In this document: piece by piece, positions 4,904 to 46,668 of the stretch
Position numbering within the stretch: the stretch's first letter is position 1
Layout of the letters: the number at the start of each line of letters is the position of its first letter
Source: Clostridia bacterium
Lineage (GTDB): Bacteria > Bacillota > Clostridia > Christensenellales > UBA1242
Length of the DNA stretch: 64,000 nucleotides
Direction: 5' to 3'
NCBI GenBank assembly: GCA_045648025.1
Contig: JAZRNH010000059.1
Span: 13,242-77,241, forward strand
Position numbers and translations under genes: made by a program
Notes under the pieces: model-generated
The model's input: the letters and a program-made list of their open reading frames with translations, nothing else
The model's database searches: none
Told to the model about the DNA's origin: nothing

Positions 4904-7040
4904 AGTCAAACTCTCCCGTAACATACTTTGTTGTTCTACTATCGTATGGATAATTGATTGTTAAAAAAGGTACCAAATTGTCTTTTTCTTCTTTATTTGT
5001 GTAAACATAATGAACTTGAATATTGAGTTTGTTTTCAAATACACCTTTATCACCGACATAACCATTTGTAACCTGATAACTTTCAGGAAGTTCCTTAATT
5101 GCCATACCATTAGACATTGTACTACGATATTGATTTTCTCCATCTCTCATTTTAACTAATGTGAAAGAATCGGGGATTAAATCTGCTTTAACAGAATCTA
5201 TTAGAGATTGAAATACATATCTATTAATATTTGTACACTCATAAGGAAAACTCCATCTTTTTAACACTTTTTCATAAAAATCTAGTAATGAAATATTCTC
5301 ATAATATTTATGAACATGTTCATTATTTCTCCCATAAAAATATGATTGCGGATTTCCTAAGGTTTTAAAATACTCTTCTAAAATTTGATAATTGTTTTTA
5401 TATTCTTTATCACTTGCATAACTTAATGAACGATCATAAGTATATCCAGCATTAATCTCGCCTAAGGTTACTGTTTTTGAAATTGTCTTTCTGGTTAAAA
5501 TTAACTTCTTATTACTTAAAACAAACACCCTTTTCATTTTTTGCATAGGCTGACCAGTTTTTAAAAAGTTTCTAATTGTTTGCCATAAATAATTTTCATG
5601 ATTATTAATATCAACAAAATACCTTTTCATTTCTTGAGGCATATAAACCTTACATAAATCTAAATAATTTTGTTTATAACCAAACCATCTTGCACGTTGC
5701 AAAGTATTATCTACAGGGTTTTCTTTTGCAGTTCTATAAATATATGTAACAGCTAAGTTTTTTAAAGTTATACCTCTTTCTAGCATATTTCCGCCAACAT
5801 ATATTTTATATTTGTAAAATTTATCCATTCCAATATCTTGCGAGTCGTTACTACCTTCTTTTGTATTAATTTGGTACACTCTTGTTTTATTTAAATTTTT
5901 CTTTATTACAACATACAAATCATCAAATGGCGGAAAGTAATTTGAATCCGTCACCATTTCTTCTTCGTAAATTTGTTTAAATTCATTATATAAATCATCA
6001 TATCCAAGAGAACAATCATCAGAAATAACACTTGTAATTGAGTCTAACTCATTTTTTACTTTATCGTAAATAATGTTTTGAACTGCTGTGCTAGATGATG
6101 GATGCACTAACATACTATGTGCACTTGTATCACCTCTTAAGTACCTAACACCACATCCCAAAATAAAATATTTTAAAGCATCACAGAATGATTTTGGTAC
6201 ACCCAATTTGAAGTTTTCCGTATCATTTGCTTCTTCAACTAATGTGTTTTCCATTGTATCATGAAATACATTTGCTCCTGTATATCCATTACCAGGTTCT
6301 ACCAATACACAGTCATCCGGAGAAAGATTATCTAGAGCTGTAGATAGTAATAAATTTGATTGAGGTGTGGCTGTAACAGACAAGTAGGTTCCCCTCTTGA
6401 CAAATTTTACACAATTTAAGATTGCTTGACTTACGGCTTTGGGTCTGTTTTTTGCTCCAGGAGAATATTCATCACCCTCATCATCGACAATTAGTGAAGG
6501 AACATCTGATAATGACGAAGTCAATTGCTCCAAGTTTGCCAAATTTGATTCACTTGTTTTACTTTTGTGCTTTAACACCATTAAAATAACTTTGCAACCA
6601 CAATTAATTCTTTGCTTAACTTCTCTAGCATCAGCATTGTTGATATCCATAATTAAGATATCATCATTATTAGAAAACTCTTCTAAAATTCTATCTTTGT
6701 TTTGTGATAAAAGATTGGTTTTTGTTCCACCAATAACATATGCTATGTCATAACCATTATCAAATGCAAGGGCTATTGTGCTTATGAAAAAAGATGTCTT
6801 ACCGCTTTGAACTTTACCAAGACATAATAATTTATTCATTTTTTCATATGGGCTAGTTGGCGAAACAAACTTTAACAACGCTTTCGTTGCATTTGAAAAA
6901 ACATTATTAAGATTTGTTTCTGACCAAGACTCTTTCATGTGTTCACAAAGGGTCCTTTTATAAGGACCGTCTGTAATAACATTTGTAATGTATTTACATT
7001 CATTAGCTTCAACTTGCTCGTTTATAACAGTTTCTGACAT
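4893..7040 (-). CDS. Z1-domain P-loop NTPase
   Basis: Walker A LGKVQSGKTS and Walker B LIVDDEGDE. The size (715 aa) and the position next to a GHKL ATPase and a C5-MTase are as I recall for Z1 family proteins. Confidence 0.65.
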   Translation of the reverse strand: MSETVINEQVEANECKYITNVITDGPYKRTLCEHMKESWSETNLNNVFSNATKALLKFVSPTSPYEKMNKLLCLGKVQSGKTSFFISTIALAFDNGYDIAYVIGGTKTNLLSQNKDRILEEFSNNDDILIMDINNADAREVKQRINCGCKVILMVLKHKSKTSESNLANLEQLTSSLSDVPSLIVDDEGDEYSPGAKNRPKAVSQAILNCVKFVKRGTYLSVTATPQSNLLLSTALDNLSPDDCVLVEPGNGYTGANVFHDTMENTLVEEANDTENFKLGVPKSFCDALKYFILGCGVRYLRGDTSAHSMLVHPSSSTAVQNIIYDKVKNELDSITSVISDDCSLGYDDLYNEFKQIYEEEMVTDSNYFPPFDDLYVVIKKNLNKTRVYQINTKEGSNDSQDIGMDKFYKYKIYVGGNMLERGITLKNLAVTYIYRTAKENPVDNTLQRARWFGYKQNYLDLCKVYMPQEMKRYFVDINNHENYLWQTIRNFLKTGQPMQKMKRVFVLSNKKLILTRKTISKTVTLGEINAGYTYDRSLSYASDKEYKNNYQILEEYFKTLGNPQSYFYGRNNEHVHKYYENISLLDFYEKVLKRWSFPYECTNINRYVFQSLIDSVKADLIPDSFTLVKMRDGENQYRSTMSNGMAIKELPESYQVTNGYVGDKGVFENKLNIQVHYVYTNKEEKDNLVPFLTINYPYDSRTTKYVTGEFDYEN

Positions 7041-7047
7041 ATTTTAC

Positions 7048-8538
7048 CTACTTTACACTTCTAATTATAGAGTTTATTATGCTTAAAATTTTATAAGCAT
7101 CTGAATTTCCATTGTTTTTAGATGTAATAATCGACACACATACCGTAATTGCCATTTTTTGTAAAAATTCAAGGTTGCTTTTTGTTTTTCCCAATCCGCT
7201 AAAAAATTCCAAACCATAGTTTATTGTTAAATCATATTCTGATGGTTGATTCTTTGTATGTATTTTAATCCAATCATTAAAATCATTATTTTCAAATTTT
7301 ACATTAAATACATAGTGTACACCTTGAACATCAATTTCAACAGGCTCAAACTCATCTTCTCTAACAGCGCTATCAATTGAATTTTTTAAACTTTGAGAAA
7401 CTTCTTTTTCAATTTCTGAATCAACAACTGTATTAACTATTTGCTCTATTTTTGAATTATCAATAGATTTAAATGATTTATTAATGTTGTTAGCAATCTG
7501 TTTTTTATTTTCTTTTGATATTGGTTTGTCTTCTTTTCTTAACTCTGAAGACTTGGCAATGATTGCACCTGCTGCGCTTTTCAATTCTTCAATAAATCTA
7601 TCTTCTACATCCCCTTCCCACATCAATTCATCTTTTGTGTAAGAAGGCTCCCAATTATCACCCTTTAAATTAACTTCACCTATAATTCTTTGGTAAGGAT
7701 AAAGGTTTGGTTTCCCAACCAATTTTGTTGGTCTATAATGTATTTTAATTGCCCTACCTTTTCTAAATAAAGTTAATCCTGAAAATTCAGTATCGGCTGT
7801 TGCTCTTATACCAACCCAACCATCAAATGAATATGCCTTACCCTCAACTTCAAATTGTCTTTCAAAAGTTGTCATATATGCACTACCGGTTGATTGATTT
7901 ATCCAAAGTTCAGGTTTTTGATATTTAATTGGCTCTTTATTAACTGTCATAACTAATTCTTCGTTTCTAATATCTAGCGAATACATTTCTGATAACGATC
8001 TGATTAAAGAATTAATTTTATTGGCACTTATTTTTTTGTTAAGAATCTCAATTTTAATAATTGTGTAATGTTCATTTTCATCACATTCTTCTTTTGTTGC
8101 GGTAACTGCTTCTGGTGAATTTCTTGTAATTTCATCCACGTCAACAACAGCTTTATATTTATTTTTTGAACCAAACATTGTTGTTTCAACCGACCATAAA
8201 GAACCTAGGCATGTAGCAGAAGTTTTTAACCCCATTCCCTTTTCGCATCTTCCAGAGGTATCTTCTGGTGGAGAATCTAATTTTAAAGCCCTCTTAAAAT
8301 CTTCTATCTCCATGCCATACGCATTGTCATAAATTTTAATATATTCAGGATATATTTCAATATTTATGTGACATTTATGTTGTCCAATTGCAGCCAATTC
8401 TTTTTTATGAGAAATAAAACTTTGTGTTGAATTATCAATAAATTCTGCAAATGCATTTTCAATTTTATATGATTGATTTTTATATGTTCCTAAAATACTT
8501 GACCCAGGTCTAATATTTACTAAGAATTCTTCTCTCAT
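7048..8538 (-). CDS. GHKL (HATPase_c_3 / MORC-MutL-like) ATPase
   Basis: N-box AFAEFIDNSTQS and G-box EKGMGLKTS. The start overlaps the MTase stop (TCAT at 8535-8538 on the + strand, which is ATGA on the coding minus strand). Confidence 0.65.
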   Translation of the reverse strand: MREEFLVNIRPGSSILGTYKNQSYKIENAFAEFIDNSTQSFISHKKELAAIGQHKCHINIEIYPEYIKIYDNAYGMEIEDFKRALKLDSPPEDTSGRCEKGMGLKTSATCLGSLWSVETTMFGSKNKYKAVVDVDEITRNSPEAVTATKEECDENEHYTIIKIEILNKKISANKINSLIRSLSEMYSLDIRNEELVMTVNKEPIKYQKPELWINQSTGSAYMTTFERQFEVEGKAYSFDGWVGIRATADTEFSGLTLFRKGRAIKIHYRPTKLVGKPNLYPYQRIIGEVNLKGDNWEPSYTKDELMWEGDVEDRFIEELKSAAGAIIAKSSELRKEDKPISKENKKQIANNINKSFKSIDNSKIEQIVNTVVDSEIEKEVSQSLKNSIDSAVREDEFEPVEIDVQGVHYVFNVKFENNDFNDWIKIHTKNQPSEYDLTINYGLEFFSGLGKTKSNLEFLQKMAITVCVSIITSKNNGNSDAYKILSIINSIIRSVK

Positions 8539-9743
8539 TTATTCTCCTCCACAAAGTCAACAAATTGTTTAAAGACATTATAAATAACATCAACATTAAC
8601 AGCATTTCCAAATTGTTTATAAGCCAATCTCATGTTGTTATCAATTTTAAAATCCTGTGAGAAACTTTGTAAATTTGCTGTTTCTCTTGGTGTTAAATAT
8701 CTTTTATATTTGCCAACAATAGGAACATGCACCATAGCAACAAGCGCAGGAAATTCTGTTGGTTGTTTTACTCTAACACCAGATGGTCTAAACTGAATAA
8801 TTCCATCAAAAACAGAGTCTATCATTCCATTAACTTGCCACTCAAATTTTCTGTGCGTCTTTTTGATATCTTTTAATTGATTGTTAGCAGTATACCATTT
8901 GTCAATAAATTCTTTATTTTCTTCATACAATTCTTTGTTCTTTTGAACAAATTCTTTTTTCCATTGAGGAAATTTAGAAGTATCAGTCTTTTTATAAAAT
9001 TCATCGCTCCAAATTGGGAACCCAATAATTTTTCTTTTTATACCTTTTATAAAATCATCCCAAAGTTTTAAAACTCTTTCCTCATAATCTGTAATCTTAA
9101 ATGATTGCAATTTATATTCTTTTGTATTCTTTGTCATTAATACGCTGTCAATAGAACAAGTATTTTTTTGTCTTGGCGGAATTGAAATTTTAATCTCTTT
9201 ATTAAAATAATCATTTTTTACTGCCACAATTACAGCTCTTTCTCTTAACTGTGGAACCCCTAGATAATGAGGACTTACAATCATTGGATTTTCAATAACA
9301 TTATAACCCAAATTTTTAAGTTCCTGCCTTATTCGTATCCAAGTATTTCCCTTGTCGTGAGAAACCAAATTTCTAACATTTTCAAGAATTACATATCTAG
9401 GACTACCATACATAAGATTATGGTATTGTAATATTCTTACAATATCAAAAAACAAGACACCTCTAGCATCTTGGAAACCTTTTCTTTGTCCCGCTTTTGA
9501 AAATGATTGACATGGGAATCCAGCACAAAGAACGTCAAATTCAGGGATATCCTCTGGGTTAACCTTTGTAATATCACTATAAGCTTCAATATTATAATTA
9601 TTTTTATAAGTTTCAGCTGTTTCTTTATTTATTTCTGAGGCATATACGCATTTGCCACCCAATCTTTCCATTGCTTGGTGAAAACCACCAATACCAGCAA
9701 ATAAATCTATAAATTTAAATCCATTATCAAAAAAACTATTCAT
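8535..9743 (-). CDS. dcm: DNA (cytosine-5)-methyltransferase
   Basis: Motif I FIDLFAGIGGF, motif IV GFPCQSFS, motif VI ENVRNL, motif X QFGNAV. Confidence 0.92.
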   Translation of the reverse strand: MNSFFDNGFKFIDLFAGIGGFHQAMERLGGKCVYASEINKETAETYKNNYNIEAYSDITKVNPEDIPEFDVLCAGFPCQSFSKAGQRKGFQDARGVLFFDIVRILQYHNLMYGSPRYVILENVRNLVSHDKGNTWIRIRQELKNLGYNVIENPMIVSPHYLGVPQLRERAVIVAVKNDYFNKEIKISIPPRQKNTCSIDSVLMTKNTKEYKLQSFKITDYEERVLKLWDDFIKGIKRKIIGFPIWSDEFYKKTDTSKFPQWKKEFVQKNKELYEENKEFIDKWYTANNQLKDIKKTHRKFEWQVNGMIDSVFDGIIQFRPSGVRVKQPTEFPALVAMVHVPIVGKYKRYLTPRETANLQSFSQDFKIDNNMRLAYKQFGNAVNVDVIYNVFKQFVDFVEENK

Positions 9744-9746
9744 TTG

Positions 9747-10310
9747 TTATTCTGCCTTATTATTATCTATATAATTATCTAAAAATGTTTCAAAATATTC
9801 TGGTCTGAACACCCATATCTTTTGATCAGAACATGTCGTTTGCTCAAATCCTTTTTTATATCCATCTTGCAAATCTTTCACTTCCACATAGCAAGATCTA
9901 TTCGTATTATGACTTATATAACGATATGCATTCCACGCAACCATAATTGGATTATTGTCAAAGTTATAATAACCAAGGATTACTAAAACCTCAGTGTCTG
10001 TTGTATCAATGTAATTGTCAATATTGTCTTTTCTAATATTTGTTACTTGCACTCTTCTAATATGTGGCTTACCTGCCCAACCAGCACCAGTAATATTTTT
10101 TAAATATGTAACTATTCTATACCTTTTATTATTTTTTTCCAAAACAAACTCATAAGGAACACGTTTCGTATTAACTCTTTCTTTAATAACAAAACCATTT
10201 ACAGAAACAAATTCTTCAAATTTCTGTAATAATTCCCCTTTTTCATAGACTTTTTCAGGCTTATCGTAAACTAAATTATTTGCTTTATCAATATTGATAT
10301 ATTGAACCAT
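9747..10310 (-). CDS. hypothetical protein, first gene of the Dcm/GHKL/Z1 operon
   Basis: 187-aa ORF with RBS AAGGAGAA; its stop lies 3 nt before the dcm start. Conserved-looking patch NITGAGWAGKPHIRRVQV. Possibly a methylase-associated DNA-binding or nuclease component, but not recognised with certainty. Confidence 0.6.
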   Translation of the reverse strand: MVQYINIDKANNLVYDKPEKVYEKGELLQKFEEFVSVNGFVIKERVNTKRVPYEFVLEKNNKRYRIVTYLKNITGAGWAGKPHIRRVQVTNIRKDNIDNYIDTTDTEVLVILGYYNFDNNPIMVAWNAYRYISHNTNRSCYVEVKDLQDGYKKGFEQTTCSDQKIWVFRPEYFETFLDNYIDNNKAE

Positions 10311-10738: not shown

Positions 10739-11920
10739 TTAAAACTTGAATTTCTTTTTGTAATCATTTTCTAGAGCGATACAAGCGCTATAATTAAAAT
10801 ATTCTCCCTGCTTATTAAAATTTTGTTTTATCTCTTCAGAATCATTAAATCTATTCATAAATTTTAATAAAGATATCAAACAAATAAAATCATCAGCAAA
10901 AATTCCCGCAAAAGTCTTATTCCAAGAAGTATTTAAATCGCAAACAATATATTTTAATTTTTTATACAAATTAAGTTGACTATCTGTCAAATTAAACCAC
11001 TCGGAAGATAATAATGTCTTTTTTATATTATTTGTATCTATTGGATGCATTGATTTGTTTATTGACTTCAATAATTTGCTTATAAAACCAGCAAACATAT
11101 CTGCCACACGAATCCCAAAGCATAGCTTAGAATCTTCGTCTGATACATTTTTTATTCCTACATTTTTAGCGGACATAACAGTTTTTTGAGAATCTCCCTC
11201 TCTATCAATAATAAGACTATAATTATCAATCGAATTTTCTTCTAAAAAATGTTTAAAGCCGACAAATGGGGGATCATAATTCCAATTTAATGTATTAATA
11301 TTTTCAATATCATCAAGCAAAAACAATATTTGCCTAAAAGACTCATTTTCTCTTTCTTTTAACACTAGATTAACTTGATTTTTCTTCATTCTTTCAATAA
11401 AAAATTTTCTTAAAGATCCTATTATATTGTCAGGTTTGTTATATATGCTATCAATAACATTTTGTGGTTTATAAATAACTAACGCTTTAACTATTGAGTA
11501 TTTCATTGAATTGATATCTACAAACAAATTACTTTTATAATTTTTAAACAGCTGATTAATTATAAATTCTATTTTGCTAAACGTTGAAACATAAATAAAT
11601 ATATCTTCTGATAAAAAATCTAAAAAGTCATTTATAAAACCTATATTGAATTTTGAAATTGAACGAAATCCATTGATAAAATAGTTGCTTTTAAAAGAAT
11701 GACTTTTTAATTCTCCTTCTTGTTGTCTTTCTATGTATTTCATTTCAAAATCTTTATATTTTTTACAAATAGAATCTTCTTTATCAGATTTCCACCCAAC
11801 AATTACTGTAATAAAATTATCATAAAAATTATCAGCCGTTATTGTGTCATACCCTATTTGTCTACTATGCTCTGACTCATCATAATAAAATTTATATTTA
11901 AAATCCGTTTTTGTTATCAT
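10739..11920 (-). CDS. DUF3800-like protein
   Basis: N-terminal FYYDESEHS and C-terminal IRVADMFAGFI resemble the two conserved DUF3800 motifs (from memory). RBS GAGGAG. The gene starts 15 nt after the upstream stop. Confidence 0.45.
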   Translation of the reverse strand: MITKTDFKYKFYYDESEHSRQIGYDTITADNFYDNFITVIVGWKSDKEDSICKKYKDFEMKYIERQQEGELKSHSFKSNYFINGFRSISKFNIGFINDFLDFLSEDIFIYVSTFSKIEFIINQLFKNYKSNLFVDINSMKYSIVKALVIYKPQNVIDSIYNKPDNIIGSLRKFFIERMKKNQVNLVLKERENESFRQILFLLDDIENINTLNWNYDPPFVGFKHFLEENSIDNYSLIIDREGDSQKTVMSAKNVGIKNVSDEDSKLCFGIRVADMFAGFISKLLKSINKSMHPIDTNNIKKTLLSSEWFNLTDSQLNLYKKLKYIVCDLNTSWNKTFAGIFADDFICLISLLKFMNRFNDSEEIKQNFNKQGEYFNYSACIALENDYKKKFKF

Positions 11921-11935
11921 AATCTCCTCTAATAA

Positions 11936-12559
11936 TCATCCTTGTTCTTCATTTATTTCTTCATTATTAGAAAAATTAAGTATTAAATGAAATACTTTAA
12001 ATTTGTTTTCATTGTTATCAATTTCTTCCGATTCAGCAATAAAATTAAACTTATATTCCATCGATAAATTATTAAAATTAAATTTATCATTTAATCTATT
12101 AAATAATTTACAACTATCACCACTTTCAACAAAAGATATCATTCCCGCACAATCATAAGGAATTGGATATTTGCCAGAAATAAATCTGTTCAAACCATTT
12201 TGAACATATTCAGCATTAATATGAGATGCACAAATTTCATTTTTTAGAAATCGTTTACACTCAAATGTAATACCCTCATCTGTCATAGAATCAATAAAAA
12301 CAGTAATATCTGTTCTCCCCAAAGTCATCCCTGTTTCTTCATCAAAAGGCTCTAATTGAGATATGACATGATCAAAGTTAAACTTTTTCTTATGATTACG
12401 AATTTCTTTAATTAACAGATTTCTTCTTTGATCTTCTAACAAAATTTCATCTTGTGCATTTATGGACATTTTCTTATAAGAATATATAATTAAGTTAATA
12501 AAATTTTCCAATAAATTTATTTTTATATCATTTACTAATTCAAAATTAATATTATTCAT
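11936..12559 (-). CDS. small PD-(D/E)XK nuclease-like protein (candidate restriction endonuclease)
   Basis: GRTDITVFIDSMTDEGITFECKRF gives D...ExK. The start overlaps the MTase stop by 8 nt, and RBS GGGAGG lies inside the MTase 3' end. Confidence 0.55.
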   Translation of the reverse strand: MNNINFELVNDIKINLLENFINLIIYSYKKMSINAQDEILLEDQRRNLLIKEIRNHKKKFNFDHVISQLEPFDEETGMTLGRTDITVFIDSMTDEGITFECKRFLKNEICASHINAEYVQNGLNRFISGKYPIPYDCAGMISFVESGDSCKLFNRLNDKFNFNNLSMEYKFNFIAESEEIDNNENKFKVFHLILNFSNNEEINEEQG

Positions 12560-15482
12560 TATTTCCTCCCATTAGAAGGATTTTTTCAATTTTGGAAAAA
12601 TCAAGATAAGCAACTGCCTCTTGCCAATTTTCTTCTTTTTTATTTTTTATAATAAATACACCATCTGTAAAAGTTCCGATAAAATTTTTTCTAAGAGCGA
12701 TATTATTAAATAATTGATTTATTGAAGACATTTCGTATGTTTTTAAAATTAATTCAAGTAAACGTTGTAAATCTGTTTTATTTTCTTTTTGTGAAAACTC
12801 AAAAAGTATTATCTTGAAAAATTTGCCTTCATAATAATTAACATACACATTATATTTCTTTGGAATTAACTGTTTTATTAATTTTTTAAGAGTTTTGTTG
12901 TAAACATTTGTTGAATCAACAATCTCATCCATATTTTTTTCTTTTAAACAATATTTCAATGAATATTTGATAATAGCTATATCTTTATCATCCAACCCAT
13001 ACAATTTATAAACTTCTTTATTTAAAGATTCTAACAACGATATATAATTGCATGTATCTCCAGAATGTTCATATAAAAAACTAATTTGTTTTTCATTTAT
13101 GTTTTTTATTTGTAAAGCATCAAATTTTATTAATTCTTTATGTATTTTTTTAACAATACTAATCAAATTTAAAAATGAGTTTTTAGTATATACAGGTAAG
13201 GGAAAATCTTTTATACTATCCATCCTAATTTCCGGTTGTGATGTTTTATTGTAAGATGGAGCCATATGAAATTGGTAATAATTATAAATATCTGAATTTA
13301 AAATAGCTTCCAAAAACAATAACTCATCTATTCTTTCTTCATTTGTAAATATTGAATAAAAATCATTTCTAAAGAATATTTGATTATTAATAAATGCACA
13401 CTCTGGTCTTTTATCTCTAATAGACCTTTTAATTAATAATTTGTATTTGCAAAAATATTGCTCTATATTATGCAATCTTTCAAATCTGTAAACTGTATTG
13501 TTAGTTAAATTATCATAATCAATCTTGAATCTTGAAAAACGACTAGACTCGCAATGTTTTAAATCTAAAAACTCTTTATTTTCTTTGTCCCCAGCTGAAT
13601 ATCCCTGAGATATCTTAAGATTATGTTTTAGAATATATTTATCTATCGTAAAACCATTTTCTCTTATTAAATTTATTAGCTCAAAGTCTAATTTATTTCC
13701 TTCATGCAATATAGACCATATATAATCATACTTTTTCATTACCTTTGAACTAATTTGTTGAGCATTTGATTTATCAAATGCAATTTTATTTTGCAATACA
13801 TCTATAAAATCTTTTTCTATATTAATATAATCACATAAAGACTCATTTTTGCTTTTTAAAACGTAAGTTATAACGGAACAAGGGTATTTTGCATTTTGGA
13901 AAAGACTTGCTCTAAGTCGTTGTAAATTCATAATTTCAACTATTGAAAAATGCTTAAACATTTCTTTCCTAAATCTATTAGCTAATGAATTATATAAAAT
14001 TCCATTCGAAATTAATATTGAAGCTACACCATCTTCTAATAAAAAATCCTTAGTTCTCAATATAAATGATTGACATAATTGCGAATCTGAAATTACATCC
14101 TTATGATTTACATCTAGATATTTTTTACAATCTTCAGTCAAGATGCTTGACCAAGGCGGATTACCAATAATTAAATCAAATTTTTGATCAAAAACAAGTT
14201 TTTCACTAAAAAAATCTTTACAATTTAAATTATTATTCAAATCAGGTAAATATATTTCATTTTCCTCTATATCTTTAGGATTAAAACAATCTAAAAGTGC
14301 AATATATAGACTTATTCTTGTAATTTTTAATGCCTGTGCATTAATATCTACACCGAAAATACTTTCCTTCAAAATAGAGATTAACTTCGCATGACTTCTG
14401 CATGTTTGTAATGACACCAATTTTTTAAAACATGATACCAAAAATACTCCCGAGCCACAAGAAGGATCAAGAATTCGATATGATTTTTTTAAAATTCTGC
14501 TTTGAATGTTTTCTATCATTGCATTTGCTAAAAAATATGGAGTATAGAAGGCTCCGTTATTTTTCTTAGCAACAATATCCTCCTCAGATAAAAATAATTC
14601 ATAAATATTACTTATAAGTTCTATTGGTATTATACTGAAATCATATCCATACAAACATAATTGCCCTGTATTTAGTTCCGTTCCATTTAGAAAATCAATT
14701 ATAATATCTGCTTCATATTTTTCTAATAATGAAGAATTATTATAAAAAATATTTCCTTTAAACTTATTTTCTAAATACATTAAAAATTCATTAAGGTTTT
14801 TAGAAACTAATATTTCCTTATAATCTTTCACTCCAAACTTATTATAAGTTTTTTCTGTTAAAATTTTTCTGTCTTCTAAATATTTTATAAAAATAGATTT
14901 AGATAAGATATCATGCGCATTATCAAAAGAGGTTCCTTTTTCACACAAAAGTCTAAGAGCTGCTTTTATATTTATTAAAAGTTTTTGATCAACCCTATCG
15001 GAACTTTTTACTATTTTTTCGCAAGCTTCGATAAATTTACCATTAATTAAATTTTCATATTTTAATAAGATAAAATCTAACTTCCCTCTTTTTTCTAGAG
15101 AATTTAAAAATTTAAACCCATCCTTAATGCTAAAATTGTTATTTAAAATAACATCTGTTGGAGTTATGAACAACGATATTGGTATGTTATTTCTATTCCA
15201 AAGTATTCCTCTCAACTGCCTAATTTCATTCGGATCATTTCTTTTAAAACATTTTATTCCCAATATTGCAGTTTTTTCTATATCACCAACTCTTGCAATT
15301 TTAACAACAAAATCAAATATATCATCAGAAACAAGTTCTATTTCCTCTTTATTCTTTAGGTCCAATATTTCTAATAATGTATTTAGTTGATCTTCTATTT
15401 TCAAACTTAATATATTTTTTAATTTATCTCTTAAATATTTTTCATCTTCAATAAAATAAGATTCTTTCATATTTTTTTCCAT
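12552..15482 (-). CDS. gamma-class N6-adenine DNA methyltransferase with large N- and C-terminal extensions (Eco57I/PglX-like layout)
   Basis: Motif X GAFYTPYFLA, motif I ILDPSCGSGVFLV and motif IV IIGNPPWSS, in the order X-I-IV. 976 aa. No clear nuclease motif in the N-terminal ~300 aa. Confidence 0.85.
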   Translation of the reverse strand: MEKNMKESYFIEDEKYLRDKLKNILSLKIEDQLNTLLEILDLKNKEEIELVSDDIFDFVVKIARVGDIEKTAILGIKCFKRNDPNEIRQLRGILWNRNNIPISLFITPTDVILNNNFSIKDGFKFLNSLEKRGKLDFILLKYENLINGKFIEACEKIVKSSDRVDQKLLINIKAALRLLCEKGTSFDNAHDILSKSIFIKYLEDRKILTEKTYNKFGVKDYKEILVSKNLNEFLMYLENKFKGNIFYNNSSLLEKYEADIIIDFLNGTELNTGQLCLYGYDFSIIPIELISNIYELFLSEEDIVAKKNNGAFYTPYFLANAMIENIQSRILKKSYRILDPSCGSGVFLVSCFKKLVSLQTCRSHAKLISILKESIFGVDINAQALKITRISLYIALLDCFNPKDIEENEIYLPDLNNNLNCKDFFSEKLVFDQKFDLIIGNPPWSSILTEDCKKYLDVNHKDVISDSQLCQSFILRTKDFLLEDGVASILISNGILYNSLANRFRKEMFKHFSIVEIMNLQRLRASLFQNAKYPCSVITYVLKSKNESLCDYINIEKDFIDVLQNKIAFDKSNAQQISSKVMKKYDYIWSILHEGNKLDFELINLIRENGFTIDKYILKHNLKISQGYSAGDKENKEFLDLKHCESSRFSRFKIDYDNLTNNTVYRFERLHNIEQYFCKYKLLIKRSIRDKRPECAFINNQIFFRNDFYSIFTNEERIDELLFLEAILNSDIYNYYQFHMAPSYNKTSQPEIRMDSIKDFPLPVYTKNSFLNLISIVKKIHKELIKFDALQIKNINEKQISFLYEHSGDTCNYISLLESLNKEVYKLYGLDDKDIAIIKYSLKYCLKEKNMDEIVDSTNVYNKTLKKLIKQLIPKKYNVYVNYYEGKFFKIILFEFSQKENKTDLQRLLELILKTYEMSSINQLFNNIALRKNFIGTFTDGVFIIKNKKEENWQEAVAYLDFSKIEKILLMGGNNE

Positions 15483-15509: not shown

Positions 15510-16559
15510 CTATTCTGTTCTAGTATAATAAGTCAACTTGCGTTCTCCGTGTTTTTCAATTAGATTATGGTCTAACAATTCTTTTAAGCATCTTTCAATT
15601 GTTGTTTCTGATAGTGTAGGACACAATGCAACGATATCTGCTTTTGTAAATTTGCCAATTTTTGTTTTAATGATATCTTGGACTTGAGTTAATGCTTTTG
15701 ATTTCTGTTCAAGCAAAATATTTGCTCTTGTTTCAAAGTCTCTATATGCCTTCAAAATTACTGACAACATATATTTGATAAACTCAGTTGGATTATTTGT
15801 GTTGTCTGACCAATTTGTTGAACTATATTGCAAAGCATCATAATATCTGCCTTTGGTTTCTTCAATAATTTTTTCAATAGAAATAAACTTTCCAACATTA
15901 TATTCTTGCTTGTATAGAAGAAGTAAAGTCAAAAGTCTGCTCATTCTACCATTTCCATCATTGAATGGGTGAATGCACAAGAAATCTAAAATAAAGATAG
16001 GAATTAAAATTAGTGGGTCAACATCATCTTTGCTGACTGCAATATTAAACTCTTCACAAAGCCTGTCAATAGCATTAGGAGTTTCGTATGGTTCTAAAGG
16101 TTGAAATCTTACAAAAGAACTTCCATCAGATCTTGTTTCTGAAATATAGTTTTGAACATTCTTAAACTTTCCGCCAATAGGTTTTTCAGAAAACTTATAT
16201 AGGTCTCCATGAAGTTGCAAAATATAAGAACTTTTTACTGGAATAAACTCATAGTTTTCGTGAATTGTATTAAGAACATCTCTATAACCAAGAATTTCTT
16301 TTTCACCTCTATCCTTTGGTGTTGTTTTATTTTCACAAATTTGTTTAATTCTTGTGGCCGTGGTAACAATACCTTCAATCTTGTTTGAAGCTTCAGTGCT
16401 TTGAATTTTAGCAATTTCAACAAGTTTATTTATCTTTGCTTTGTTTTTAATCTCAATATTATATAACTTGCCTTTAAACTCATGTATTTGTGAAATATAT
16501 CCTAAAATCTCGTTGTCCCAAGAAACATCCTTATATTGTGAATAATTAAAAATTCGCAT
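15510..16559 (-). CDS. class II Fic-domain protein with C-terminal winged-helix
   Basis: Fic motif HPFNDGNGRMSRLL. An inhibitory-helix motif SNKIEG ([ST]xxxE[GN]) lies N-terminal to it. C-terminal TIERCLKELLDHNLIEKHG is wHTH-like. Strong RBS AAGGAG. Confidence 0.88.
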   Translation of the reverse strand: MRIFNYSQYKDVSWDNEILGYISQIHEFKGKLYNIEIKNKAKINKLVEIAKIQSTEASNKIEGIVTTATRIKQICENKTTPKDRGEKEILGYRDVLNTIHENYEFIPVKSSYILQLHGDLYKFSEKPIGGKFKNVQNYISETRSDGSSFVRFQPLEPYETPNAIDRLCEEFNIAVSKDDVDPLILIPIFILDFLCIHPFNDGNGRMSRLLTLLLLYKQEYNVGKFISIEKIIEETKGRYYDALQYSSTNWSDNTNNPTEFIKYMLSVILKAYRDFETRANILLEQKSKALTQVQDIIKTKIGKFTKADIVALCPTLSETTIERCLKELLDHNLIEKHGERKLTYYTRTE

Positions 16560-16660: not shown

Positions 16661-17062
16661 TTAAAATAACCCATACTTCTTTAAGTAATGATCCACGTAT
16701 TTGCCGTGGTCGTTTTCGAAGGTGATGGCTATGGCGATGAGGTGGCGATAAGCTACGAAGGTGTTGAATTTTATGTCGGTGATTTCTTTGAACATATCTT
16801 TTCGTTTTAGCGCGTCATAGCGCAGGTTGATTTCTTCGGGGCTAACTTTTTGATTTTTGTATAGTTTCTTTGCTTGTTTAACTATGTAATCATCATATTC
16901 AGTCTTCTCTGGAACCGATTGGTCTTTTGTAGTGTTTAGTGGTGAATTTATACTATTTTGATGTATTTCAAGAGATTCTGATGTGTTTTTGTCACAATTT
17001 TGCCCCATTTCGCAGTGTTGAGAGGCCTCCATCCCGCCATAGCGGGGCTGGTTGAACCCCAC
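16661..17062 (-). CDS. hypothetical protein in a GC-shifted patch (start uncertain)
   Basis: 133-aa ORF. The C-terminal two thirds read like coding sequence (..YDALKRKDMFKEITDIKF..ITFENDHGKYVDHYLKKYGLF). The 5' ~70 nt is GC-rich with hairpins and no clear RBS. Confidence 0.4.
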   Translation of the reverse strand: MGFNQPRYGGMEASQHCEMGQNCDKNTSESLEIHQNSINSPLNTTKDQSVPEKTEYDDYIVKQAKKLYKNQKVSPEEINLRYDALKRKDMFKEITDIKFNTFVAYRHLIAIAITFENDHGKYVDHYLKKYGLF

Positions 17063-17194: not shown

Positions 17195-17226
17195 AAAAAG
17201 GAAGTTAAATATAACTTCCTTTTTTA
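17195..17226. terminator. bidirectional rho-independent terminator
   Basis: Stem AGGAAGTTA/TAACTTCCT with loop AATA, flanked by an A-run and a T-run. It directly abuts the stop at 17227. Confidence 0.75.
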
Positions 17227-18528
17227 TTATTTTACACTAAAATATGCTTTAATTTCTTTTTCAACTTCAACAAGACTGTCAGGTTTGAGTGTTCTGGTTA
17301 TTTTATTTTCAGTTCTAACAACATCAAGCAAATCTTTGTCTTCAAGCAAATCAATAAGCTTTGCCGCTCTTGAATAACCAACAGCAAAAACTCTTTGAAT
17401 TAAAGCCGCAGAAATAAGTCCGTCATTATGATAAACAACTCTTTCAACCTTTTCGTTTAATTCTTTCATATAATTATCCTCCTCTTTTATTTCATCAAAT
17501 TCTTCATTTTCACAACCATCTTTAATTGTTATTTTTGAAATATATGGTCCATTGATTTCAACCAAAACTTCATCTTGTTCATTTGCATATTCACGATAAG
17601 TTATAAACAGTTTATAATCGTCTTCATTTAACTTTTTCAACACATCAACAACAACCATTGCACCCTTGTCATAAATCAATTTTCTTTGATCTTCAAACTT
17701 ATTCAAAATGGCAATTTTTCCAACAATTGTTTGGTCGTGAGATTCTGAATAATACACCGCATTTTCATCAAGAATTTCTGCAAGATAAATGACATTTCCA
17801 AATTCAATTGCCATTGAAATCGCAAAGAATGCTTTTTTAGAACTCAAATTTCTCAAATCATCTTTTGTTATTGGTTTAAGCTCTAGCGGAAAAACTTCTT
17901 CAACTGAGCAGCTTTTTCCACCTTCAAAATAACAAATTCCATCGTGAATTTCGTCAACCAAATATTCTTTATCAACTTCAAAACCCTCTGTATTTTTCTC
18001 AGGATTTGAAAATCCTTTATATTTCACTTTTGTTGCAACAACATCAATAAAATCTTTTGCAGGATACTCTTTAAGCTCATCAATTTCATTTGGAATCAAA
18101 TAAACATCTCTTTCTTTGTTGTAAATTGCCCTAACCCAATAATACTCATCTTTAAAAAGCTCTTTGTTGCTCTCACCTTTATATTGCACAGTTTTCTTTC
18201 TTGGAAAAACCTCATATCTAGTTTTTCCGTAAAGTCTAAGCAAATAATCCACATAATTTATAGCCGCTGTGCTAGAAAGCCCACTTCGCATACCCTTATA
18301 GATAACATAATCTAAAAGGTCTTCAAGAAACTTAAAATATTCATCTGAGCCAATTTCAATATTTTCTTCAATTTTAACAAAAATAAAACGGCAATCATCT
18401 GCTGAAAACCCAGCATACTTAAATAATTCAATCAAAAAATGATCTTTTCTTTTGTGGATATATTCTCTAAATTCTTTCACTTCTTTTTCTGAAATAGTTT
18501 CATTTTGTTTTTCATCAATAATAGTCAT
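17227..18528 (-). CDS. hypothetical protein with C-terminal FtsK/SpoIIIE gamma-type winged-helix DNA-binding domain
   Basis: C-terminus GLISAALIQRVFAVGYSRAAKLIDLLEDKDLL fits the gamma-domain consensus (S..lQR...iGY.RAA.lid.LE). The N-terminal ~350 aa is unrecognised. RBS AAGGAGAA. Confidence 0.7.
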   Translation of the reverse strand: MTIIDEKQNETISEKEVKEFREYIHKRKDHFLIELFKYAGFSADDCRFIFVKIEENIEIGSDEYFKFLEDLLDYVIYKGMRSGLSSTAAINYVDYLLRLYGKTRYEVFPRKKTVQYKGESNKELFKDEYYWVRAIYNKERDVYLIPNEIDELKEYPAKDFIDVVATKVKYKGFSNPEKNTEGFEVDKEYLVDEIHDGICYFEGGKSCSVEEVFPLELKPITKDDLRNLSSKKAFFAISMAIEFGNVIYLAEILDENAVYYSESHDQTIVGKIAILNKFEDQRKLIYDKGAMVVVDVLKKLNEDDYKLFITYREYANEQDEVLVEINGPYISKITIKDGCENEEFDEIKEEDNYMKELNEKVERVVYHNDGLISAALIQRVFAVGYSRAAKLIDLLEDKDLLDVVRTENKITRTLKPDSLVEVEKEIKAYFSVK

Positions 18529-18542
18529 AACAATATTCTCCT

Positions 18543-19439
18543 TTAGTTTTCAAATTTGTCTTTATATTTTTTAAAAAATTCATAATATATTTTTGGATTT
18601 TCAAGTTCCCACCAATTTTTTATATCAACAGGATTCGCATCAAGGTCATAAATTTTTGCAGAGTCAATACCAAGCAAAAATGGAGAGTGTGTAGCAATAA
18701 TAAATTGACAACCGCAATATCTTGAAAGTTCTTCAATAAGTTGCATTAACTCAATTTGTTTTTTGGGCGATAAACTATTTTCTGGCTCATCTAAAAGATA
18801 TAATTTGTCATTTTCAAGATGAACAATAAAATATCTTAATGCCGTTTCACCATTGCTGTCTAGTTTAAGTTCTTCACCAGCTGTTAGCCGTTTAAATTTT
18901 CTAGCAGTCATTTTCTTTTTATTTGCAAGAACCCTAAGCCTTAAATCATCATAATCAATCATTCCCTTAACTTTAACGGTTTCGTAATATCTTTTTTGAT
19001 AGAAGTCTTTTTCTGCAATTTCTCTTGATTCTGTGATGTTTTGATTATTTTCTCTGATGTTTAACATATATTCAAAAATATCATCGCTACAAATTATCTT
19101 GCTTCCATTAGGAATTCTAAGTTCTTCACCATAATCACCATAACCCATTTTGGCTTTGCACAACTTGGCAAATTCATCAAAATTTTCATTTGAATTAAAT
19201 GGCGAAGTTCTAATCAAATTTAAGTTTTCGGCAATCAAATTTAAAAGTGTGGTTTTTCCTGAACCATTGCCACCATAAAAAATGGTAATTTTGTCAAAAT
19301 CAACTTCTTTCAAATTTTTTGCAGGAAATATATCTGCCGGATAGTTTCCTCCAATATATCTGCCATTTCTATCAAATATATTGCTGTCAACATATTCTTT
19401 GTTTTGATATATAACAAACTTATCAAGCCAAATAGTCAT
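18543..19439 (-). CDS. ABC-type (AAA_21-like) ATPase, no transmembrane or nuclease domain
   Basis: Walker A GGNGSGKTT, signature-like DSNGETAL, Walker B LYLLDEPENSLSP, H-loop ATHSP. RBS AGGAGG. Confidence 0.8.
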   Translation of the reverse strand: MTIWLDKFVIYQNKEYVDSNIFDRNGRYIGGNYPADIFPAKNLKEVDFDKITIFYGGNGSGKTTLLNLIAENLNLIRTSPFNSNENFDEFAKLCKAKMGYGDYGEELRIPNGSKIICSDDIFEYMLNIRENNQNITESREIAEKDFYQKRYYETVKVKGMIDYDDLRLRVLANKKKMTARKFKRLTAGEELKLDSNGETALRYFIVHLENDKLYLLDEPENSLSPKKQIELMQLIEELSRYCGCQFIIATHSPFLLGIDSAKIYDLDANPVDIKNWWELENPKIYYEFFKKYKDKFEN

Positions 19440-19459
19440 ATTTGCCTCCTAAACATTTT

Positions 19460-19570
19460 TTATTTCTTTTTCTTTTTATCATTTTTTGAAAGTGATTCAA
19501 ATTCAGCTTCTGCAATAGGAGTTTCTTCACTAATAACACCCCAACCCATAATTAAATCAATAATACCCAT
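19460..19570 (-). CDS. unannotated 36-aa micro-ORF (MGIIDLIMGWGVISEETPIAEAEFESLSKNDKKKKK)
   Basis: It is below the ORF-track length cut-off. An ATG at 19570 is preceded by AAGGAGG with an 8-nt spacer. The TAA stop lies 20 nt upstream of the ATPase start. Confidence 0.45.
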   Translation of the reverse strand: MGIIDLIMGWGVISEETPIAEAEFESLSKNDKKKKK

Positions 19571-19757
19571 AATCATTTCCTCCTTAAATTAATGACCAAT
19601 AATAAAGTTCATCGTAGAATAAATTAGAAATATAACAACAATAATTGCCATACACATCTCTTCTTTACACCTATATCATATCAAACATTAAGTCCAAAAA
19701 AACGGATTTAAAAATTGAATTTTGATATTTTTTAACAAATTTAAAAATTTTTAGCAT

Positions 19758-19790
19758 AAAAAAAGAAAGGTTATTTCACCTTTCTTTTTG
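19758..19790 (-). terminator. rho-independent terminator after the 575-aa gene
   Basis: Stem AGAAAGGT/ACCTTTCT with loop TATTTC, flanked by A/T runs. Confidence 0.7.
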
Positions 19791-19797
19791 ATTGTTT

Positions 19798-21525
19798 TTA
19801 ACTCATTTGTTCGCCATTTAATTTTCTTTTGGCAAAATATTCTTCAATACTTTTGCACTCTTTCATATTTTCAAGAATCTGTCTTCGAAGTTCTGCTTTA
19901 TATGCTTCTGTTTCTTGTTGGTTTTGAATTTTGCCTTCTGCAACAGCTTTGATAACCCTATTCATAACACCAATCGATTTAAACAATCTATTGGTTGACA
20001 CAAAACATTCTGCCATATCAACCATTTGTGGCTCAACTTTAATTTGACTGCCATCTGGTTGCAAAAAGTAAACCGAGTTAGACATATATTCTCCTCTGTT
20101 AAAGCATGACGAATATGGTTTCAATCTAACCTTTATGCCTTTGTTTCTGTCATAAAGTTTAGCTTTTTCTTGTGTGTCAAAAAACTTAATATATTCCATT
20201 ATTGTTTTAATAAAGGCATCTGAAAAATCAACTGACTTGCCATCTTTTGCTCTTTCAAAAAGCTCTTCACCAACCAAAAATTCAATTTCTTTGTAAGTAA
20301 GTCTGTTTTTAAGAGCTGATTCATCGGTTGAAAATTCTTCATAAGAATTGAGTCTTTGATAAAAATAATCAACCATCTTTTTAACAAAAATAATATCAAT
20401 TCCCGGTTTATCAAAAGTTGATTTTGCAATTCTTGTCATCTTTGAAAAATCGCGAAGTGAAGAACTTTCTTCAATAACCTCTTCTGGTGAAACCTTTCCT
20501 GTAACAACCCCAGCAACTCCATTTCTTGATTCAGCAACAAAAGCTCTGCTGCTTGTTTCTGAGTTCTTTTCATAAAACTCTGCAAATTCTGGGTCTAAGT
20601 AAGCCACTTTTTTGAGCATATCTCTAAACCCGTCAACCGAATCAATTTTATATTGTTTGCAAAATGCATAAGCAGACATTTCAGACTGTCTAAAAATCTC
20701 TGCAATTTGAATATAATCTTCTGGATAAAAAATTGGAAAACCATCTTCAAGTTTAAAGAATTGAAGCAATCCACCGTTTTCATCATACCAAGAAGCCATT
20801 CGCTCATCTCTTTTTTGCTTCCAAAACTCAGAAAGTCTTTTGTTTGCTTCAATCTTGTTTTCTGCAAATTTTCTTGTGTTTTCAATATATTCTTTAACAA
20901 CTGGCGGAAGCTTTTCAATATCACCCAAACTTTTATATCTTTCAACAACCTCTGCTCTGCCCACTTTTTGATTTGCAACTTTTTTAAACATTTCAGGATT
21001 ATTTTCAGCAAACCAATCAAGCAATTCCCACTTATTGTCATCATTGATATAATATCCAACAAGTTGAATATGTTCCAAAATCTTCCACATCATTTTTGGA
21101 TTATCAAGAACCTCTTTTGTGAGCGGAGAAAGTTTTTCAAACTCTGCTTCATAGCCTTTAAAATCTTTTTTAGTTATATGTTTGTAAGGAAGAAGCATTC
21201 TAATACAAGGCTCTGCTGCTTGAATATCAGTGATAAAGCATTTCATAATAACTGCTTTTTTCTCTTTGATAAACTCTTCTCTTTGTTCCATACTATGAGA
21301 CTTAAAACATTTTGAAAAAGTTTCTTCAATGTTGGCAGATATATAATTGATAACTTCGTTTCCAAAATACAAAATTTGTTCACTTGAAAGATATTTCAAA
21401 TATAGCCATTCAAACTTTGAATTTAACAATCTTTCAAATTCTACCATTCTTCCGTCATCATAAAGTTTTTTAAGTTCCTTAAAAAATTCATTAAAAAGAA
21501 CTTTTCTTCTTGTTGTTTCACCCAT
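19798..21525 (-). CDS. hypothetical protein (575 aa), no recognisable domain
   Basis: Long uninterrupted ORF with normal amino-acid composition. It starts 3 nt after the stop of the 52-aa ORF. Confidence 0.7.
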   Translation of the reverse strand: MGETTRRKVLFNEFFKELKKLYDDGRMVEFERLLNSKFEWLYLKYLSSEQILYFGNEVINYISANIEETFSKCFKSHSMEQREEFIKEKKAVIMKCFITDIQAAEPCIRMLLPYKHITKKDFKGYEAEFEKLSPLTKEVLDNPKMMWKILEHIQLVGYYINDDNKWELLDWFAENNPEMFKKVANQKVGRAEVVERYKSLGDIEKLPPVVKEYIENTRKFAENKIEANKRLSEFWKQKRDERMASWYDENGGLLQFFKLEDGFPIFYPEDYIQIAEIFRQSEMSAYAFCKQYKIDSVDGFRDMLKKVAYLDPEFAEFYEKNSETSSRAFVAESRNGVAGVVTGKVSPEEVIEESSSLRDFSKMTRIAKSTFDKPGIDIIFVKKMVDYFYQRLNSYEEFSTDESALKNRLTYKEIEFLVGEELFERAKDGKSVDFSDAFIKTIMEYIKFFDTQEKAKLYDRNKGIKVRLKPYSSCFNRGEYMSNSVYFLQPDGSQIKVEPQMVDMAECFVSTNRLFKSIGVMNRVIKAVAEGKIQNQQETEAYKAELRRQILENMKECKSIEEYFAKRKLNGEQMS

Positions 21526-24055: not shown

Positions 24056-24130
24056 GTTCCCTTAGTTAAATGGATATAACGGGGCCCTCCTAAGGCTCAG
24101 TTACAGGTTCGATTCCTGTAGGGAACACCA
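24056..24130 (+). tRNA. tRNA-Arg (anticodon CCU), CCA encoded
   Basis: Acceptor GTTCCCT/AGGGAAC. Anticodon arm GGGCC-CTCCTAA-GGCTC (anticodon CCT). T-arm ACAGG-TTCGATT-CCTGT. Discriminator A plus CCA. Confidence 0.9.
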
Positions 24131-46560: not shown

Positions 46561-46668
46561 AAAATTATTTCTCCTTTGTTTTATTTCTAAATTCATTATA
46601 ACAATAAGGTAATAATTTTTAAAGTATTTTAGAAAATTTTTAATAAAAAAATGATAGAAACATTTCTA

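Follow-up and report, generated by a model that had tools for sequence, protein, structure and literature searches.

Organization of the four-gene unit

The DNA analysed here, which we refer to as the window, is a 64,000-nucleotide stretch of contig JAZRNH010000059.1 from a Clostridia bacterium (GenBank assembly GCA_045648025.1) with a G+C content of about 30%. Its minus strand carries a unit of four genes encoding a 20-residue hydrophobic peptide, a 36-residue microprotein, a stand-alone ABC-type ATPase and a 433-residue protein that ends in an FtsK/SpoIIIE gamma-type winged helix (Table 1). An interpretation made earlier without database searches (hereafter the sequence-only reading) had described these four open reading frames (ORFs) as one operon between two strong terminators. 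Both the ORF list and the sequence bear this out, and all four ORFs lie where they had been placed. On the minus strand the upstream terminator reads GAAAGGT-GAAATA-ACCTTTC followed by TTTTTTT, and the downstream terminator reads GGAAGTTA-TATT-TAACTTCC followed by TTTTT. As both are palindromes with an A-tract and a T-tract, they are expected to be active on the minus strand too. The distances between the genes and the terminators on either side make it most likely that a single promoter drives all four. This promoter has no recognizable -35 element but instead has an extended -10 element and a 6-bp inverted repeat. The hydrophobic ORF can be read as 22 residues from an in-frame upstream ATG (19589-19657), but the second ATG, at 19651, is better placed and gives 20 residues.

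Table 1. Features of the four-gene unit, domains of the 433-residue protein and surrounding genes, in window coordinates
Feature	Position	Strand	Remarks
Bidirectional intrinsic terminator	19760-19789		12-pair stem and T run; ends the upstream 575-residue gene and insulates the cassette
Operator-like inverted repeat AAATCC-N8-GGACTT	19690-19709	-	overlaps the expected -35 position
-10 hexamer TATGAT after TGa (extended -10)	19675-19680	-	9 nt downstream of the repeat
20-residue hydrophobic peptide gene, MAIIVVIFLIYSTMNFIIGH	19589-19651	-	from the ORF list
36-residue microprotein gene, MGIIDLIMGWGVISEETPIAEAEFESLSKNDKKKKK	19460-19570	-	ribosome-binding site AAGGAGG
298-residue stand-alone ABC-type (AAA_21/AAA_15) ATPase gene	18543-19439	-	ribosome-binding site AGGAGG
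433-residue protein gene	17227-18528	-	ribosome-binding site AAGGAG; starts 14 nt past the ATPase gene
Five-helix N-terminal region	18232-18489	-	residues 14-99; AlphaFold2 (AF2) model, predicted local distance difference test (pLDDT) about 65-88
Two small beta-barrels (SH3/KOW-like topology)	17869-18216	-	residues 105-220; AF2 pLDDT >90
NTF2-like (SnoaL/ketosteroid-isomerase-like) domain	17518-17856	-	residues 225-337; AF2 pLDDT >90
FtsK/SpoIIIE gamma-type winged helix	17275-17502	-	residues 343-418; without translocase motor
Bidirectional intrinsic terminator	17195-17224		13-pair stem; operon end
575-residue protein gene	19798-21525	-	upstream of the unit
133-residue ORF	16661-17062	-	GTG start
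SoFic-type Fic protein	15510-16559
Type IIG restriction-modification (R-M) enzyme	12552-15482
DUF3800	10739-11920
MTaX1	9747-10310
Dcm C5-methylase	8535-9743
HATPase_c_3	7048-8538
Z1	4893-7040
DUF4420/PD-(D/E)XK	3992-4924
485-residue DUF4379 protein	434-1891	-	island edge
tRNA-Ser	97-184
tRNA-Arg	24056-24130
MscS-type gene	45586-46596	-

The microprotein, the operator-like repeat and related WYL loci

The microprotein is the first or second gene of its cassette and belongs to a family of 19 protein clusters of 31-40 residues. Members start with MGIIDLIMGWGVVSEE(T/A)P, the exceptions being P0207 (...PEEVSE...) and the 54-residue P0209, in which the motif is internal. The N terminus, MGIIDLIMGWGVVSEETP, is invariant, and the C terminus near the stop codon is variable. 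Over codons 1-18, pairwise comparison of eight distinct alleles gave 143 synonymous and 12 non-synonymous differences. All 12 of the latter are isoleucine/valine exchanges at position 13, and AGY/TCN serine switches are present. This synonymous excess shows that the microprotein is a translated and strongly constrained peptide. The 40-residue copy at the related locus L007 is 84% identical to the window microprotein, although the ATPases of the two loci are only 63% identical.

The 20-residue peptide contains one membrane-helix-like segment. A homologue, MIVVVIFLIYATLNFLTGIGG, is encoded at L007 (E 3.9e-14 in a small local database), where its gene follows a gamma-domain gene and has its own copy of the operator and promoter. 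The two versions differ by synonymous changes such as CTA/TTG, ACG/ACA, AAC/AAT and GGT/GGC. Both micro-ORFs are hence real genes rather than chance ORFs, given the 19-cluster family and its synonymous bias in one case and the L007 relative in the other. The hydrophobic peptide is confined to the ATPase-containing variants (the window with the same-species locus L001, and L007). With its 20-27 residues, its single hydrophobic helix and a promoter of the type used by damage regulators, it is comparable to the damage-induced small membrane peptides TisB (an SOS-induced type I toxin), DidA/SidA, YneA and SosA. However, it has no sequence similarity to any of them, and no antisense RNA is evident. 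A precedent for control of a small peptide by a WYL regulator is didA, which is controlled by DriD (PMC9186387).

An alternative for the 36-residue ORF alone, compatible with any of the models for the whole unit discussed below, is that it is a cis-acting leader, an upstream ORF or an arrest peptide that tunes translation of the cargo behind it. The ORF opens its transcription unit in all related loci (preceded by the 20-residue ORF in the window and L001) and stands 18-26 nt upstream of the start of the next gene whatever the cargo. Its amino acid sequence is constrained, as in peptides of the SecM, MifM and TnaC type, and the C-terminal end of the window allele is a poly-lysine tract from an A-rich run. 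However, known arrest peptides have the opposite pattern of conservation. The classical arrest-peptide reading was judged less likely since the invariant end of the microprotein is its N terminus, MGIIDLIMGWGVVSEETP, while the residues by the stop codon vary. In addition, the microprotein is retained at L106, where the slot in front of the WYL gene is empty. An Rfam scan at E values up to 1 gave no leader RNA or riboswitch, the one match being a spurious snoRNA. We place a cis-acting role on the unlikely side.

Alignment of the leader regions gave a common arrangement of AAATCC-N8-GGAyTT, 9 nt ending in TGn, TAnnnT, GTGTAAAG and a GGAG-type ribosome-binding site. The 9-nt spacing between the repeat and TAnnnT is constant in 15 of the 17 copies across loci, those before the WYL genes of L007 and L100 included, and is 11 nt at the WYL genes of L094/95. 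The composite motif (19709-19675) matches the window once, against 0 matches expected from 100 shuffles, and there is no second operator copy within the 64 kb. Among 106 fetched loci (about 0.9 Mb) the exact composite motif is confined to these promoters. The repeat is kept in register at L001, L006, L007 and L093-L106, with L100 among them, and the genes behind it are those for the microprotein, the hydrophobic peptide, gamma-domain proteins, the ATPase and the WYL regulator. It precedes the microprotein at every locus. At L007 the genes for the microprotein, the gamma protein, the hydrophobic peptide and the WYL regulator each have a copy of their own, four in all, and the repeat also precedes the WYL gene in L094/95 and L100. 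In L006 it stands directly before the ATPase gene, and the solitary ATPase gene of L004 has a degenerate version upstream. A scan of metagenomes with the operator returned a single locus, L100, and a scan of viral contigs returned none.

The core chromosomal locus among these relatives consists of a HAD hydrolase gene (in L094-L099 and L101-L105), the operator/promoter, the microprotein, a cargo slot and a gene for a 327-residue protein with a winged helix-turn-helix, a WYL and a WCX domain. This regulator gene is present at L007 and L093-L106, including L100. The L007 regulator has HTH_11, WYL and WCX domains and matches the PADLOC WYL model at 2e-27. Although identity among the WYL proteins ranges from 63 to 76% across loci, the cargo is completely different. 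The slot holds a 169-172-residue protein with two gamma domains in L094-L099, two paralogous proteins of 83 and 89 residues in L093, an unrelated 80-98-residue protein in L101-L105 and nothing in L106. At L007 it holds an 83-residue gene, the ATPase, an 81-residue protein with a single gamma domain and the hydrophobic peptide. None of the small cargo proteins has a match in Pfam or PADLOC. The conserved core, which the sequence-only reading had missed, is the microprotein together with a WYL-type operator/promoter shared with the chromosomal locus that ends in the WYL gene.

The MscS-type protein encoded in the window is about 74% identical to the MscS beside the WYL locus in L093-L095, indicating that the window organism is related to the organisms that carry that locus. 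The window gene has GrpB, NUDIX and GNAT genes on its flanks instead, so this position does not hold the canonical microprotein-WYL locus. At L100 (582-2278) an operator-WYL unit without the microprotein is immediately preceded by a YpsA/SLOG-family gene (E 4e-19); YpsA is a division inhibitor in Bacillus.

The promoter architecture has a close parallel in DriD of Caulobacter, which binds an ATACGAC-N7-GTCGTAT pseudo-palindrome lying over an absent -35 element at a fixed distance from the -10 element (PMC13004042). The DriD regulon includes the small division inhibitor didA (PMC13004042, PMC9186387). The related loci likewise combine a palindrome over an absent -35 element, a fixed distance to the -10 element and an HTH-WYL-WCX gene, with the palindrome in a fixed position both in the target promoters and at the regulator's own gene. 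From this arrangement we infer that the window operon belongs to a WYL regulon. WYL regulators sense single-stranded DNA (PMC11662680, PMC11804915), as CapW does (PMC11662680), and their targets are DNA-damage genes, defence systems or a combination of the two (PMC12392091, PMC9122601). DdaA, a WYL activator, governs genes of both kinds (PMC12392091), and BrxR-type regulators co-localize with defence islands (PMC9122601). Among the candidate targets found here are membrane-type peptides of very small size, comparable to didA, and one member of the group lies inside a defence island, which recalls DdaA, BrxR and CapW. Nevertheless, the resemblance to the regulons of DriD, PafBC (mycobacteria), DdaA (Moraxellaceae) and CapW/BrxR is one of regulatory architecture only. 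The operator AAATCC-N8-GGAyTT and its targets (microprotein, FtsK-gamma proteins and ABC ATPase) match none of the described WYL regulons, and the regulator gene stands at the related loci but not in the window.

The ATPase and its gamma-domain partner

The assignment of the 298-residue protein as an ABC/AAA_21-like ATPase holds. It matches Pfam AAA_21 (1.8e-17) and AAA_15 (2.9e-13) and contains the motifs GGNGSGKTT, DSNGETAL, LLDEPENSLSP and ATHSP, so that the Walker A motif, a signature-like motif, the Walker B motif with its catalytic glutamate and the H-loop are all intact. The segments GGNGSGKT (56-63), SNGET (195-199), LLDEPE (215-220) and THSP (250-253) are invariant in the family alignment. 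The family comprises more than 8000 strong homologues of 55-60% identity in Clostridia and other Bacillota, a scan of GTDB gave relatives at up to 59% identity, and no curated protein family names this ATPase. Homologues P0011, P0014 and P0020 (about 58% identical) have a C-terminal helical extension of about 90 residues that is absent from the window protein. Likeness to PtuA, AriA, GajA and structures in the PDB is confined to the generic signature/Walker B region. The best PADLOC matches, to the PtuA and AriA models, cover about 50-100 C-terminal residues, and the NCBIfam scores are 35 bits for PtuA (cutoff 500) and 40 bits for MADS3 (cutoff 420). The genomic context of the family was taken from 84 loci, 80 of them from species-representative genomes and four metagenomic. 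No neighbouring family occupies a fixed position around the ATPase in these loci. The nearest neighbours are ordinary genes such as those for tRNA synthetases, transporters, HTH_3 regulators and GNATs.

The 433-residue protein was modelled with AF2 on its family alignment, and the model is confident for residues 95-335. A hidden nuclease or effector had been suspected in the N-terminal part; the fold is instead a helical bundle followed by two beta-barrels and an NTF2-like domain. Foldseek against the PDB returned NTF2-like, SnoaL and ketosteroid-isomerase folds (E 6e-5 to 1e-3, target template modelling score up to 0.72). An effector was rejected on the grounds that Pfam, NCBIfam, PADLOC and PHROGs see only the gamma domain and that the PDB folds are NTF2-like only. 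The beta-barrel units are the best-conserved part of what proved to be a rare family, here called the N-domain family, and contain the invariant residues Tyr-130 and Tyr-189. They have weak KOW/L21e-like matches among viral folds, and the viral structure library held nothing informative for the model as a whole.

The C-terminal FtsK gamma winged helix proposed by the sequence-only reading was confirmed. The protein carries LIQRVFAVGYSRAAKLIDLLED and matches Pfam PF09397 over residues 361-400 (E 2.5e-8, 34.0 bits against a gathering cutoff of 30.6) and PHROG 13700, 'FtsK/SpoIIIE-like', at 1.1e-7. A second AF2 model, of residues 335-433, has a pLDDT of 88 and a winged-helix topology of H-H-H-E-E. 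Foldseek of the gamma model returned winged-helix proteins only, with MarR and ArsR above FtsK gamma, a ranking due to the flanking helices included in the model. A gamma profile matched PDB entries 2j5o, 2ve8, 2j5p, 2iut and 5dcf at E values of 2e-18 to 4e-16, the next matches following at about 4e-4 to 1e-3. This profile combines the window domain with 19 relatives and is dominated by them, the window sequence by itself resting on the Pfam score. As the matches to solved FtsK gamma domains begin at about 2e-18 with nothing comparable beside them, the gamma assignment stands. In agreement with the same reading, Pfam found no FtsK_SpoIIIE or other P-loop domain in the protein.

The window domain shares the winged-helix family of FtsK gamma and keeps the recognition-helix motif GY(S/N)RAA(K/R)LI(D/E), whereas the wing motif G-x-x-PREV is replaced. 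The Ser, Lys and Asp of the window motif align with what we take to be Asn-1296, Arg-1300 and Glu-1303 of E. coli FtsK. In contrast to FtsK/SpoIIIE, the window protein has no alpha/beta motor, and its gamma domain is fused to an NTF2-like/beta-barrel module. The unit is therefore not an FtsK/SpoIIIE translocase. No Xer recombinase gene or dif-type site was noticed beside it, no search having been aimed at them. Gamma-type or gamma-mimicking modules without a motor are known, for example in stand-alone Xer activators such as XafT and in phage small terminases (PMC6744903, PMC9226527, PMC8190038). The gamma-like winged helix is also common to many small proteins, often in two to four tandem copies, and no second gamma domain was found in the 64-kb window. 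Proteins P0142-P0192, of about 130-260 residues, are built from two to four FtsK-gamma-like winged helices in tandem and have no motor domain. We found no description of a function for such tandem gamma-only proteins.

A search of 5.8 billion proteins with the 433-residue sequence gave only a 94%-identical orthologue in the same context (L001) and a 38%-identical relative of 349 residues without the gamma domain. HMMER found about 25 representative clusters of the N-domain (residues ~35-340) among 1.8 billion proteins, and a scan of JGI metagenomes with the N-domain alignment gave no match. The relatives are either stand-alone proteins of 320-350 residues or the C-terminal part of proteins of 467-877 residues. 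Among the larger ones, P0128, P0129 and P0156 have N-terminal regions that look ankyrin-like or leucine-rich-repeat-like by eye, and at L089 a gene for an LRR_5 protein follows the N-domain gene; such architectures are reminiscent of immunity or sensor proteins.

Conserved synteny of the two large genes, on which the sequence-only reading had staked its proposal, is limited to a few lineages. Across the 84 ATPase loci, hidden Markov model scans and hhalign found N-domain partners in two loci only (L001 and L006) and adjacent gamma proteins likewise in only two (L001 and L007), which refutes a general ATPase/gamma or ATPase/N-domain synteny. The L006 partner, a 743-residue protein 9 nt after the ATPase, is detectable by profile-profile comparison of its NTF2-like part (hhalign probability 89-90%). 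From the N-domain side, L088 has a 27-30%-identical protein of 580 residues 13 nt after an ATPase that is 56% identical to that of the window. At L004/L005 a 75%-identical ATPase has no partner. Three of the six informative N-domain lineages are ATPase-linked (window/L001, L088 and L006) and three are not (L002/3, L089 and L090/91), and the ATPase/gamma pairing occurs in two lineages (window/L001 and L007). The recurrence of the N-domain/ATPase adjacency in three of six lineages indicates that the pairing is real but facultative.

At L090 (4647-7782) and L091 the hsdM-hsdS genes of a type I R-M system are directly followed by the gene for a 578-residue N-domain protein, and this in turn by those for a 182-residue HExxH protein with a weak match (E 5e-4) to CapP, an ImmA/IrrE-type peptidase, and a 277-residue protein without assignment. 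The arrangement may represent a further damage-sensing regulatory pairing.

Genomic setting and possible functions

The unit sits in a 23-kb stretch between tRNA-Ser and tRNA-Arg genes that is a typical defence island (Table 1). The SoFic-type gene lies downstream of the cassette, with the 133-residue ORF between them. Neither this ORF nor the 575-residue gene upstream has a match in Pfam, NCBIfam, PADLOC or PHROGs; the latter has a conserved counterpart of 572 residues in the corresponding place of L001. The partition-like module considered by the sequence-only reading finds no support. The 433-residue protein has no tblastn match in 72,556 plasmids and 50,697 phages, and plasmid-partition, conjugation and phage modules were rejected on this basis. 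The ATPase occurs in four records of the plasmid collection and on two small phage-labelled contigs, annotated only as 'AAA family ATPase'. In accordance with the sequence-only reading, which knew of no described system of this composition, neither searches on FtsK gamma in connection with WYL proteins or anti-phage functions nor the titles of a portion of the papers that mention the gamma Pfam domain yielded such a cassette.

We interpret the unit as a copy, relocated into the defence island, of a lineage-specific, microprotein-headed cassette under a WYL-type operator, a reading that we hold to be about evenly balanced between right and wrong. In this interpretation single-stranded DNA arising from DNA damage or phage infection would turn the cassette on, as with DriD, PafBC, DdaA and CapW, and on this analogy DNA damage or phage attack probably induces the operon. 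The gamma domain would place the 433-residue partner on specific DNA motifs. The ATPase would serve as an ATP-driven dimerizing clamp or switch that acts on the partner by way of the N-domain, its companion in three lineages. The most likely output would be the small hydrophobic peptide, which might cause membrane or cell-division arrest like DidA or TisB.

Several points weigh against this interpretation. About a dozen metagenomic loci, all from one lineage and several on short contigs, supply the comparative evidence. There is no WYL homologue in the window (tblastn, E up to 1), including beside the MscS gene, and with no such gene either regulation would be exerted in trans or the operator would be an orphan. 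That a WYL regulator would bind the AAATCC-N8-GGAyTT repeat is deduced from position and analogy, and so is the inducing signal. The unit contains no known effector domain, and PADLOC does not recognize the partner. Half of the N-domain lineages have no ATPase. The wider ATPase family is solitary and well conserved in housekeeping contexts and may thus have an independent cellular role.

For the function of the cassette a defence role is plausible. The parts of the earlier proposal of a DNA-recognizing defence module that stand are the location in a defence island and the true gamma domain; those that do not are the expected nuclease and the synteny of the pair across the family. A more specific possibility is that the WYL-controlled cassettes, in which a near-invariant microprotein and a dedicated operator precede the hypervariable slot, are a new class of conflict systems. 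The ATPase and its NTF2-gamma partner, with the 20-residue membrane peptide as the effector, would then be one type of cargo and form a nuclease-free system against phages or plasmids that reads DNA motifs through FtsK-gamma. We rate this class as a whole as rather unlikely. If it is real, stand-alone gamma proteins would be immune or checkpoint readers that use motifs of the chromosome-polarity type to separate self from non-self DNA.

The rival that survives best for the whole unit is a DNA-damage or cell-cycle module. The cassette would again be WYL-induced, and its gamma proteins would compete with or replace FtsK/SpoIIIE at motifs resembling FtsK-orienting polar sequences (KOPS) or SpoIIIE recognition sequences, or on Xer recombinases. 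Chromosome segregation or dimer resolution would thereby be delayed or assisted while the small peptides block division like DidA, SidA, YneA or TisB. The core locus of microprotein, gamma protein and WYL gene is vertically conserved at one site amid HAD, HIT and MscS genes, a context of housekeeping type, and L100 has its YpsA/SLOG gene beside the operator-WYL unit. The promoter architecture is that of DriD, whose regulon holds the division inhibitor didA (PMC13004042, PMC9186387), and FtsK gamma is known to activate XerD and read KOPS (PMC5052618, PMC3130261). However, the cargo slot shows a hypervariability among close relatives that is unusual in a housekeeping checkpoint. The window copy lies inside a defence island, and a type I R-M locus contains N-domain relatives. 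Moreover, no DNA-repair gene stands behind the operator in the ~0.9 Mb examined. We consider such a module doubtful, and for the window copy we lean slightly towards conflict or defence over a DNA-damage checkpoint.

The model put forward by the sequence-only reading was an autonomous two-gene defence system of the Septu, PARIS or Gabija type, in which the ATPase senses, the gamma protein reads foreign DNA and executes, and the micro-ORFs are incidental. As in Septu (PtuA-PtuB), PARIS (AriA-AriB), Gabija (GajA-GajB) and AbiL, an AAA_21/AAA_15 gene stands immediately upstream of its partner in a defence island, and the coupling across 14 nt is tight. Divergent proteins are paired in the same way in L088 and L006, the partner, like many defence genes, is very rare and has a patchy distribution, and the top PADLOC matches of the ATPase are PtuA and AriA. 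However, this likeness resides in generic C-terminal ABC motifs and is far below the family cutoffs, the window ATPase being a minimal protein of 298 residues. The partner has no HNH, Toprim/OLD or helicase(-nuclease) domain and no nuclease, protease, NADase or other effector fold, but NTF2-like and gamma domains instead. With the family cutoffs unreached and no nuclease partner, the unit falls outside Septu, PARIS and Gabija. Nor is ATPase-partner pairing a property of this ATPase family; the family is mostly solitary amid housekeeping genes. Finally, the best-conserved elements are the microprotein and the operator, which are found also without the ATPase. We therefore regard an autonomous two-gene system as unlikely.

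The weakest alternative is that the juxtaposition is incidental. A housekeeping ATPase with its own function would have inserted by chance between the microprotein and a gamma-domain gene, and the N-domain/gamma fusion would be an unrelated protein that is co-transcribed without cooperating. The ATPase does stand alone in most lineages and has no partner in L004/L005 at 75% identity, and some N-domain proteins are found without it. However, the N-domain family has only about 25 clusters, yet three divergent lineages encode it immediately downstream of this single ATPase family, the gaps being 9-14 nt. In addition, four ATPase loci of the subclade of at least 63% identity have the operator or a degenerate form of it. 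We consider an incidental juxtaposition very improbable.

Returning to the relocated WYL-type cassette, its regulatory logic is familiar, namely a WYL regulator and a palindrome that replaces the -35 element, and its apparent targets are new. They are a constrained microprotein of 31-40 residues, stand-alone or tandem FtsK-gamma readers and, in some variants, a minimal ABC ATPase paired with an NTF2-gamma protein. Should damage or phage indeed induce the cassette, a function would be suggested for a large orphan family of ATPases, or at least for a recruited subclade, and for the numerous small proteins with gamma domains in low-GC bacteria. Such induction would also provide a Firmicute-type case of WYL regulators that link the sensing of DNA damage to immunity. 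The hypervariable slot behind a fixed microprotein offers a handle for finding further conflict genes.

At the edge of the island, the 485-residue protein listed in Table 1 contains five DUF4379 treble-clef zinc-finger repeats (E 5e-103).

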